Source: Escherichia coli
GTDB taxonomy: Bacteria; Pseudomonadota; Gammaproteobacteria; Enterobacterales; Enterobacteriaceae
Length of the DNA: 64,000 nt
NCBI RefSeq assembly: GCF_045037415.1
Contig: NZ_CP173438.1
Reading direction: 5' to 3' (one strand)
In this document: piece after piece, positions 34,171 through 59,275 of the stretch
Layout of the letters: the number at the start of each line of letters is the position of its first letter
Position numbering within the stretch: the stretch's first letter is position 1
The notes under the pieces: generated by a model
Told to the model about the DNA's origin: nothing
Database searches by the model: none
Seen by the model: the letters and a program-made list of their open reading frames with translations, nothing else
Position numbers and translations under genes: made by a program

Positions 34171-34857
<687 letters not shown>

Positions 34858-41858: not shown

Positions 41859-42821
41859 TTATTGCACGAAGCGCGAGGTAACGTACTGGCTGTAATCATT
41901 CGCTACAGCCGGGACTTTGCCCTGCTCTTTCAAAAACTGCGCGGTGTCGATGATCGCTTTGTTCACCGGTCCGGTCAGTTCTGCCGTTTGTTGCTGCGGC
42001 GTCAGATAGGTATTCCCCTTCACCAGCCCCGGAACGTCACCTTCCGGCACGCCGCTTAACCGCGCCAGTTTGCTGATGTTTTCCGGCTGTTTCAGCCACG
42101 CGTCTGGGTTAGCAATGTACGGTTGCTGAGCATCGATGGCGCTTTTAGCGAACGCTTTCACGACCTCAGGATGTTTCTCGGCAAAATCTTTCCGCACGAC
42201 CCAGACGTCCAGTGTCGGCGCGCCCCACTGCCCGACCTGTTCAGAATCGGTCAGCACCTTGCCATCTTTTTCCAGGGCGTTAACCGCCGGTGCCCATACA
42301 TAAGCACCATCAATATCTCCCCGCTGCCATGCGGCGATAATTGCGGGCGGCTGCAGGTTCACAATCTCAACTTGCCCAGGTTTAATACCCCAGTGTTTCA
42401 GCGCCGCCAGCAGGCTGTAGTGGGTGGTGGAGATAAACGGTACGGCGATGCGTTTACCAATCAAGTCTTCCGGTTTACTGATAGTTTTCTTTACCACCAG
42501 CGCTTCGGAGTTACCCAGTTTTGACGCCAGCAAGAAGACTTCAATCGGCACCTGTTGGCTGGTTGCAACCGCTAACGGGCTGGAACCGAGGTTGCCGATT
42601 TGCACATCGCCCGAAGCCAGCGCCCGCACGATGCTGGCTCCACTGTCAAACTTACGCCAGTCCACGGTTGCTCCGCTTTCTTTAGCAAAGGTGTTGTCGG
42701 CCTGAGCCACTTTCGCCGGTTCGGCGGAGGTTTGATACGCCACGGTGACGTTCACCGCTTGCGCCTGAAAAGCGATGAATGCCAGTGCGGCAAGAAATGT
42801 GTTACGCGATGAAATTGCCAT
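41859..42821 (-). CDS. tauA: Taurine ABC transporter periplasmic binding protein, 320 aa
   Basis: ORF translation MAISSRNTFLAALAFIAFQAQAVNVTVAYQTSAEPAKVAQADNTFAKESGATVDWRKFDSG... Confidence 0.95.
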   Translation of the reverse strand: MAISSRNTFLAALAFIAFQAQAVNVTVAYQTSAEPAKVAQADNTFAKESGATVDWRKFDSGASIVRALASGDVQIGNLGSSPLAVATSQQVPIEVFLLASKLGNSEALVVKKTISKPEDLIGKRIAVPFISTTHYSLLAALKHWGIKPGQVEIVNLQPPAIIAAWQRGDIDGAYVWAPAVNALEKDGKVLTDSEQVGQWGAPTLDVWVVRKDFAEKHPEVVKAFAKSAIDAQQPYIANPDAWLKQPENISKLARLSGVPEGDVPGLVKGNTYLTPQQQTAELTGPVNKAIIDTAQFLKEQGKVPAVANDYSQYVTSRFVQ

Positions 42822-43051
42822 GATTGTCTGCTCCCCCGTCTTGTTATGGGAGCAGTATTTCGTTGCGGGTAAGTTTGATAAAGGAATTAAAACGTCTTGT
42901 TAATAACAAAGCGTTTTTAGAAAAAAATCGGCAATGGTTAGCGAGTTTGCGCATTTTGCTACTTTTAACAAACATCGCCTGATGTGACGCTCACGCCTCT
43001 TATCATGCCTACAAATACTGGGGCCGGATAAATTTTATTCTCCAGTGTTAT

Positions 43052-43100
43052 ATACTATAGGGGGGTATGCATTGACATATAGCATACCCCCCTATAGTAT
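43052..43100. promoter_or_regulatory. FrmR operator: perfect 19-bp inverted repeat with G6/C6 tracts flanking an 11-bp spacer, overlapping the frmRAB promoter
   Basis: ATACTATAGGGGGGTATGC-ATTGACATATA-GCATACCCCCCTATAGTAT; arms are exact reverse complements; 27 bp upstream of the frmR ATG; the spacer contains TTGACA. Confidence 0.75.
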
Positions 43101-43126
43101 ATTGCGTGCAGATGATGAGGTGCGAA

Positions 43127-43402
43127 ATGCCCAGTACTCCGGAAGAGAAGAAAAAGGTCCTTACTCGAGTTCGTCGTATTCGGGGGCAGATTGATGCTCT
43201 GGAACGGTCGCTGGAGGGTGATGCCGAATGCCGTGCCATACTCCAACAGATCGCTGCCGTTCGGGGCGCGGCTAACGGACTGATGGCAGAAGTGCTTGAA
43301 AGCCATATCCGGGAAACGTTTGACCGAAATGACTGCTACAGCCGTGAAGTCAGCCAATCCGTTGACGACACTATTGAACTGGTTCGTGCCTATCTTAAAT
43401 AG
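43127..43402 (+). CDS. frmR: Formaldehyde-responsive repressor FrmR (CsoR/RcnR family), 91 aa
   Basis: ORF 43106..43402; internal Met gives [65 protein letters not shown]... Confidence 0.93.
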
Positions 43403-43406
43403 CTGA

Positions 43407-44546
<1,140 letters not shown>

Positions 44547-44638: not shown

Positions 44639-45472
44639 ATGGAACTCATTGAAAAACATGCCAGCTTTGGCGGCTGGCAAAATGTGTATCGGCATTATTC
44701 CCAATCACTGAAATGTGAAATGAATGTCGGCGTCTATCTCCCCCCAAAAGCCGAGAATGAAAAATTGCCGGTGTTGTACTGGCTTTCAGGCCTGACCTGC
44801 AACGAGCAAAATTTCATTACTAAATCGGGGATGCAGCGTTACGCGGCTGAGCACAACATTATTGTTGTTGCGCCGGACACCAGTCCGCGAGGCAGTCATG
44901 TCGCAGATGCTGACCGTTACGATCTCGGGCAAGGTGCCGGGTTTTACCTGAACGCGACGCAAGCGCCGTGGAATGAACATTACAAAATGTATGACTATAT
45001 CCGCAACGAGCTGCCGAATTTAGTGATGCATCATTTTCCGGCAACGGCCAGAAAGTCAATCGCAGGTCATTCTATGGGCGGGCTGGGCGCGCTGGTGCTG
45101 GCGTTACGTAACCCAGATGAATATGTCAGCGTCTCGGCGTTTTCGCCCATTGTCTCCCCATCGCAAGTACCGTGGGGACAGCAAGCCTTTGCCGCATATC
45201 TTGGTGAAAATAAAGATGCCTGGTTGGATTACGATCCGGTGAGTCTTATTTCACAAGGTCAACGCGTTGCGGAAATCATGGTTGATCAGGGGTTGAGTGA
45301 TGATTTTTACGCGGAACAACTGCGGACTCCAAATCTTGAAAAGATCTGCCAGGAGATGAATATCAAGACGTTAATCCGTTATCACGAGGGTTATGATCAC
45401 AGCTATTATTTTGTCTCCAGTTTTATTGGCGAGCATATTGCCTACCACGCCAATAAACTGAATATGCGTTGA
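44639..45472 (+). CDS. frmB: S-formylglutathione hydrolase (esterase D family), 277 aa
   Basis: ORF translation MELIEKHASFGGWQNVYRHYSQSLKCEMNVGVYLPPKAENEKLPVLYWLSGLTCNEQNF... with GHSMGG catalytic serine motif. Confidence 0.95.
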   Translation: MELIEKHASFGGWQNVYRHYSQSLKCEMNVGVYLPPKAENEKLPVLYWLSGLTCNEQNFITKSGMQRYAAEHNIIVVAPDTSPRGSHVADADRYDLGQGAGFYLNATQAPWNEHYKMYDYIRNELPNLVMHHFPATARKSIAGHSMGGLGALVLALRNPDEYVSVSAFSPIVSPSQVPWGQQAFAAYLGENKDAWLDYDPVSLISQGQRVAEIMVDQGLSDDFYAEQLRTPNLEKICQEMNIKTLIRYHEGYDHSYYFVSSFIGEHIAYHANKLNMR

Positions 45473-56126: not shown

Positions 56127-56156
56127 TTTACACTCTATGTGTCCGGCTCGTATGTT
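56127..56156 (+). promoter_or_regulatory. lac promoter -35 (TTTACA) and -10 (TATGTT) hexamers
   Basis: TTTACA at 56127..56132 and TATGTT at 56151..56156 with 18-bp spacer, as in the lacP1 promoter. Confidence 0.85.
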
Positions 56157-56162
56157 GTGTGA

Positions 56163-59275
<3,113 letters not shown>

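Follow-up and report, generated by a model that had tools for sequence, protein, structure and literature searches.

The promoter of the formaldehyde-detoxification operon of Escherichia coli, Pfrm, has been described as carrying two type I sites for the repressor FrmR, each of the form ATAC-N9-GTAT, which together form a large inverted repeat (Denby 2016, Sci Rep 6:38879, PMC5146963). FrmR binds Pfrm DNA specifically, with a Kd of ~220 nM by bio-layer interferometry, and is dissociated from it by formaldehyde; in vitro transcription demonstrated FrmR-dependent repression that formaldehyde relieves, the underlying mechanism being a Pro2-Cys35 methylene bridge between FrmR subunits (PMC5146963). 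Two FrmR tetramers were modelled on the E. coli dyad (Fig. 6, PMC5146963), and the alternative of one tetramer bridging the two sites via both of its faces was also raised by Denby et al. (PMC5146963). The transcription start of E. coli Pfrm is termed 'predicted' in the same study, which reports no footprint of FrmR on Pfrm (PMC5146963). Two ATACN9GTAT sites transplanted into the constitutive promoter J23100 rendered it FrmR-repressible, and in one study a truncated PfrmR, with both sites kept and the upstream DNA removed, lost repression (PMC11127321), so the palindrome alone may be insufficient in its native context.

Two further systems are close to Pfrm. The frmRA operon of Salmonella Typhimurium is likewise repressed by FrmR and induced by formaldehyde (Osman et al. 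2015, 2016; PMC4528141, PMC5016687), its operator consisting of a C6 tract with T/A-rich flanking inverted repeats. Mutation of one flanking inverted repeat abolishes FrmR binding, the flank thus being required, and a 33-bp operator probe binds two FrmR tetramers (PMC5016687, PMC4528141). Unlike Pfrm, it has a single C6 site, without a mirror second site or a long dyad, in an operon that lacks frmB; Salmonella-like single-site promoters were found here in Tatumella, Brucella/Ochrobactrum and Pasteurellaceae. The RcnR operator of E. coli rcnR-rcnA resembles Pfrm in combining a G6 tract with short AT-rich inverted repeats and in carrying two sites per promoter, namely two type I sites TACT-G6-N-AGTA with one tetramer per site (Iwig and Chivers, cited in PMC5146963). 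RcnR and FrmR belong to the same DUF156, CsoR/RcnR repressor family, and the FrmR encoded in the window analysed here (the whole 64-kb stretch of E. coli DNA) scores 68 bits against the RcnR model. The two operators differ in the distance between site centres (19 bp for RcnR versus 32 for Pfrm) and in their flanks (TACT/AGTA versus ATAC/GTAT), and the effector is Ni/Co for RcnR versus formaldehyde for FrmR (PMC5146963).

The long dyad at window positions 43050-43102 is almost certainly the operator-promoter (Pfrm) of the frmRAB formaldehyde-detoxification operon, with two FrmR sites bracketing the -35 hexamer, and no result of the analysis spoke against this assignment. With the site motif defined as ATAC-N9-GTAT per Denby 2016 (PMC5146963) and PMC11127321, two exact copies were located on the + strand, one with G6 and one with C6, as in a type I operator of the CsoR/RcnR family. 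Site 1, the distal one, spans 43052-43068 (ATAC-TATAGGGGG-GTAT), and site 2, the proximal one, spans 43084-43100 (ATAC-CCCCCTATA-GTAT). The sites lie in mirror orientation with their centres 32 bp apart, and no third ATAC-N9-GTAT site was detected within <=3 mismatches across the 64-kb window.

The promoter elements are interleaved with these sites. The -35 hexamer TTGACA of the frmRAB promoter (43072-43077, + strand) and the -10 hexamer TAGTAT (43095-43100, + strand) make up TTGACA, 17 nt, TAGTAT (10/12), the sole sigma-70-like match in 42700-43500; these positions therefore place the -35 hexamer in the dyad spacer and the -10 hexamer in the right arm. Site 1 ends at its 3' side 3 nt before the -35 hexamer, while site 2 covers most of the -35/-10 spacer plus the entire -10 hexamer. 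The core promoter is accordingly overlapped, with the -35 hexamer between the FrmR sites, the -10 hexamer in site 2 and frmR as the first gene. Transcription is predicted to start in the region 43105-43108 (+ strand), 5-8 nt past the -10 hexamer. The original prediction of a FrmR operator of the CsoR/RcnR family is borne out by two exact sites over the frmRAB promoter that match the published Pfrm (PMC5146963), and its proposal that more than one tetramer binds agrees with the room that two sites give and with the two tetramers modelled in PMC5146963.

The inverted repeat has perfect 21-nt arms with 100% complementarity, as located by a repeat finder and an exhaustive scan. The left, promoter-distal arm (43050-43070, + strand; ATATACTATAGGGGGGTATGC) contains the G6 run at 43060-43065, and the right, promoter-proximal arm (43082-43102, + strand; GCATACCCCCCTATAGTATAT) contains the C6 run at 43087-43092, the two being separated by an asymmetric 11-nt spacer (43071-43081, + strand; ATTGACATATA). 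A palindrome at 43052-43100 with G6 and C6 tracts had been reported from the letters, and the letters match, the arms extending 2 nt further on each side; the 11-nt spacer with TTGACA at 43072-43077 is likewise present as claimed. No other perfect inverted repeat in the 64-kb window (loop <=60 nt) is as long, the runners-up having 13-nt arms. When the window was shuffled 100 times with dinucleotides preserved, the longest such repeat reached 9-13 nt, and the analytic expectation for arms >=21 nt is ~9e-7 per window. The dyad is real and not a chance product. The view of it as an unusually long operator holds for its length, which is exceptional, and fails for its unity, the element being two 17-bp mirror sites plus a few flanking bases and not one operator. 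Its length and perfection follow from two like sites being set face to face, and the dyad as such is not a functional unit.

The gene downstream, frmR (43127-43402, + strand), encodes the formaldehyde-responsive repressor of 91 aa and is identified by NCBIfam NF008464 with 189.2 bits (cut-off 133), also being supported by the RefSeq annotation of identical DNA. The placement of the dyad upstream of frmR was correctly called, with the ATG at 43127 and the protein at 189 bits against the FrmR equivalog cut-off of 133. As an autoregulated, operon-leading gene, frmR starts 25 nt past the dyad and is followed by frmA, encoding S-(hydroxymethyl)glutathione dehydrogenase (43437-44546, + strand; TIGR02818, 743 bits), and by frmB (fghA), encoding S-formylglutathione hydrolase (44639-45472, + strand; TIGR02821, 398.5 bits). 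The upstream neighbour of frmR is the divergent tauA, with further tau transporter ORFs beyond. The dyad precedes the predicted transcription start and tauA is divergent, and therefore no annotated unit transcribes it.

Comparison with E. coli K-12 Pfrm (PMC5146963) indicates the same locus and the same element, with both 17-bp sites identical, two sites around the -35 box, and frmR, frmA and frmB downstream. K-12 differs from the window in carrying A instead of C at the equivalent of 43083 and A instead of G at 43106. The A at 43083 makes the K-12 dyad imperfect, its arms being perfect for 19 nt and then mismatched, whereas the window allele is perfect over 21 nt. The upstream context is yaiO in K-12 versus tauA in the window, and the centre-to-centre spacing of the sites, measured here as 32 bp, is stated as 31 in PMC5146963. 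Experiments on E. coli in the literature were done with MG1655 (K-12) or with DNA of unspecified E. coli, and it is the K-12 allele that differs at 43083. FrmR binding, release by formaldehyde, in vitro repression and the sufficiency of transplanted sites are taken from the literature, where the Kd, the dissociation by formaldehyde and the in vitro transcription refer to the K-12 Pfrm fragment (PMC5146963). Pfrm as an element, the two sites in it, the repressor and the way formaldehyde is sensed were all already published; the anatomy in this window, the identity of the flanking genes, the near-universal conservation in E. coli and the conservation of the core motif in Proteobacteria were observed directly here.

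The proposed mechanism of Pfrm follows the published model. Each FrmR site would consist of ATAC/GTAT flanks around a 9-bp core of TATA plus a G/C tract. Without formaldehyde, tetrameric FrmR would occupy both sites, probably with one tetramer per site as in the published model, and would keep RNA polymerase off the promoter, presumably by steric occlusion. Formaldehyde would cross-link Pro2 and Cys35 between FrmR subunits, causing FrmR to leave the DNA, and its release would allow transcription of frmR-frmA-frmB, frmR itself included. The stoichiometry of the two-site E. coli operator, either two tetramers or one bridging tetramer, is modelled only.

Within E. coli the element is nearly universal, an 81-mer around the dyad being present in 5415 of 5426 complete genomes with a median of 1 place per genome and a maximum of 2. 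The exact 61-mer of 43046-43106 occurs in 3551 records (~65%), and a further 1814 depart from it at 1-2 positions; the K-12 allele, with A for C at 43083, accounts for 1025 records (~19%). Across seven aligned E. coli alleles, base substitutions are confined to 43069-43083, which covers the spacer plus the two innermost bases of each arm. Both 17-bp FrmR sites are free of substitutions in these alleles, one of which has a C5 tract, and site 1 (43052-43068) is invariant in all seven. Perfect 21-nt symmetry is the majority state, neither fixed nor required. The reading of this symmetry as a sign of strong selection does not stand, given an arm mismatch in ~19% of E. coli records (K-12 included), 1-4 arm mismatches in E. 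albertii and most other genera, and the direct orientation of the sites in Erwinia endophytica.

Conservation across species was assessed in 80 loci, obtained by scanning one genome per species for FrmR relatives. In 65 of the 80 proteobacterial species the 160 nt ahead of the frmR homologue contain an exact ATAC-N9-GTAT, compared with a background rate of 0.0025 per 160 nt in the remainder of these loci; the motif is thus conserved upstream of orthologous repressor genes, as a FrmR operator should be. Two exact sites occur in 18 of the 80 species, with a spacing of 32-35 bp in 17 of these 18 and with TTGAC between the paired sites in 15. By genus, the paired sites are 32 bp apart in Escherichia and Deefgea, 33 bp in Erwinia, 34 bp in Edwardsiella, Enterobacter, Providencia, Aeromonas, Serratia and Morganella, 35 bp in Pantoea, and 23 bp in Paraburkholderia. 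A single site only, in the proximal position, is present in Brucella/Ochrobactrum, Tatumella, Pasteurellaceae and beta-proteobacteria.

The remaining features of the E. coli dyad vary among genera. The G6 run is not conserved, being replaced by GTGGAG, GTGGGG and similar sequences, and GTGGAG occupies both arms in a group with ~90%-identical FrmR (an Edwardsiella anguillarum plasmid, Enterobacter, Morganella), where the arms are perfect over 18-21 nt. In E. albertii, whose dyad is less symmetrical than that of E. coli, the right arm carries CTCCCC, and the Klebsiella/Citrobacter-type promoter has a natural N10 distal site. Arm mismatches of 1-4 are usual across genera. In Erwinia endophytica (1922-1971 of the compared locus), two ATAC-N9-GTAT sites stand 33 bp apart in direct orientation around TTGACC, a natural case showing that a two-site frmR promoter does not need the palindromic super-structure. 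Judged by these comparisons, the conserved functional unit is the 17-bp site, joined in enterobacteria by a second copy spaced about three helical turns from the first. The long palindrome is a consequence of the two-site layout. ATAC-N9-GTAT is the part conserved across Proteobacteria, and natural promoters manage without the G6 run, perfect symmetry or mirror orientation.

Concerted evolution, in the form of gene-conversion-like homogenisation of the arms, was also considered. A permutation test on nine mirror-type lineages, comparing mean within-locus with mean cross-locus arm distance, returned 1.67 within versus 2.11 across loci (p = 0.07); the difference is not significant and this candidate was rejected.

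Unrelated hosts carry FrmR homologues with ~84-91% identity to the E. coli protein, and these fall into two promoter groups. The first comprises the Edwardsiella anguillarum plasmid, Pantoea, Enterobacter and Morganella, with perfect arms of 18 nt (21 in Morganella) and GTGGAG in place of G6, and the second comprises Citrobacter, Klebsiella and the marine Maribrevibacterium, with the N10 distal site. Promoter sequences are near-identical inside each of these host-crossing groups, and the pattern suggests that frmR together with its own two-site operator may be a horizontally mobile module.

The upstream border of the locus is variable in E. coli. Homology to most E. coli genomes begins at ~43024, 26 nt upstream of the dyad, with 42822-43023 before it; at this junction, genomes of the K-12 type have yaiO, yaiP and a gene for an acetyltransferase, and fbpC is present in another strain. 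The tauA-frmR adjacency of the window is found in only 594 of 5426 genomes and is common to E. albertii (88%) and Escherichia sp. E1V33 (96% identity), over 1272 nt. Because these two share it, the adjacency is probably the ancestral arrangement, and the upstream border of frmR probably an insertion hot spot. In E. coli Ecol_AZ161 (NZ_CP019012.1), an IS1 (777-bp length difference) is inserted between tauA and frmR, ~150 nt before the dyad, at the equivalent of window ~42900 (~125-900 in the compared locus), in the expected tauA promoter region.

The G6 and C6 runs could in principle act as a contingency switch, with ±1 slippage altering N9 and heritably toggling frmRAB between repressed and derepressed states, a reading that is very unlikely. 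Alleles of the required kind do exist on the window-type background, namely C5 (10 records), G5 (5 records), G7 (7 records, strain 536 included) and C7 (16 records at >=99% identity, including three independent MRE162 assemblies), and their occurrence in unrelated strains is what recurrent slippage would give. One arm is altered in each case, and the affected FrmR site therefore becomes N8 or N10; the natural N10 distal site of the Klebsiella/Citrobacter-type promoter implies that altered spacing is viable. At least some of these tract-length alleles look genuine, and some may be long-read homopolymer miscalls, which weakens the case for a switch. Together they amount to ~38 of ~3,590 window-type records (~1%), with G6/C6 in ~99% and 3551 records holding G6/C6, a distribution unlike that of a contingency tract. 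Typical contingency tracts are longer than six-base runs, and those seen here are short for such a role. The lack of conservation of the G-run in other genera further argues against a selected slippage function. The original suggestion that the runs are potential slipped-strand sites has modest support in the existence of ±1 alleles, which fit occasional slippage; at only ~1% of records, they do not make this a phase-variable tract, and the comparison of tract length across strains revealed only rare variation.

The dyad might alternatively work as a DNA hairpin or cruciform, either a supercoiling-sensitive structure or an invertible promoter with a flipping spacer, which is extremely unlikely in comparison with the two-site operator. 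As single-stranded DNA the region is predicted to fold at -21.5 kcal/mol (z = -7.4) into a stem of 21 bp closed by an 11-nt loop, in keeping with such a structure, and the architecture of a -35 hexamer between perfect repeats fits an inverton. One genome displays the flipped state. In E. coli FJ_Ec_21 (NZ_CP143627.1), the 15 nt between the K-12-type 19-nt arms, equivalent to window 43069-43083, are exactly reverse-complemented (2533-2547 of the compared locus; dyad at NZ_CP143627.1 3528785-3528837). The arms are mirror images that each contain TAGTAT, and this precise inversion consequently relocates the whole promoter consensus: TTGACA-17-TAGTAT moves to the opposite strand, directed away from frmR, and a 9/12 match is left toward frmR.

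The flipped state was found in this one genome of 5426, where an inverton would show both orientations in natural populations; a query with the inverted allele on both K-12 and window backgrounds returned no second spacer-inverted genome, and none on the window background. The flanking genes examined (tauA, the other tau ORFs and frmRAB) include no recombinase gene. A segment of 11-15 nt is too short for recombinase-mediated inversion. The mirror orientation is itself not conserved, as the direct sites of Erwinia endophytica and the arm mismatches of most genera attest, and the likeness of arms within a locus does not significantly exceed that across loci in the permutation test above. The FJ_Ec_21 inversion has the pattern expected from hairpin-mediated template switching and could be a real event or an assembly artefact. 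Seen in one genome of 5426, it is either an artefact of assembly or a mutational oddity, and does not amount to a switch.

A last reading takes the dyad for a hairpin in RNA (terminator, attenuator or small RNA) or for what is left of a mobile element or dispersed repeat (terminal inverted repeats, REP, MITE). It has next to no probability and is effectively refuted: the strong stem-loop and its position 26 nt from the synteny junction at 43024, at which extra genes are present in most E. coli, speak for it, and against it stand the location of the dyad upstream of the predicted transcription start, its single-copy state (median 1 place per genome, highest 2, across 5415 genomes), which does not fit a dispersed repeat or insertion-sequence ends, and its travelling with frmR in distant genera regardless of upstream context. 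Past the stem come TGCGTGC (+ strand) and AACACTGG (- strand), with no T-run on either side, and no terminator-like sites were detected on either strand of 42700-43500. An Rfam scan of the same interval (E <= 1) yielded only sub-threshold matches to eukaryotic microRNA hairpins, at <=27 bits against gathering scores of 73-100, the best being 27 bits against a gathering score of 90.

For the two-site operator itself, there is a small chance that the mirror duplication of the FrmR site makes Pfrm a mutational hot spot for rare heritable expression variants. Two routes would be involved, hairpin-mediated spacer inversion as in FJ_Ec_21 and slippage from N9 to N8 or N10 as in 536 and MRE162. Were such alleles to alter frmRAB expression, whether basal or induced, and to arise repeatedly and independently, the operator would also serve as a low-frequency switch of formaldehyde tolerance. 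Pfrm is widely used as a formaldehyde biosensor part. The natural alleles, encompassing the K-12 GA form, G5, G7, C5 and C7, and the flipped spacer, constitute a ready panel for relating operator geometry to repression.

Among the shorter inverted repeats of the window, the joint second-longest perfect one lies at 56156-56190, with 13-nt arms (TGTGTGAAATTGT then GAGCGGATA then ACAATTTCACACA). It corresponds to the lac operator O1 region, and the lac operon is therefore also within the window. Another perfect 13-nt inverted repeat, TAATGCCCGTCAA, with a 4-nt loop, is located at 34812-34841.
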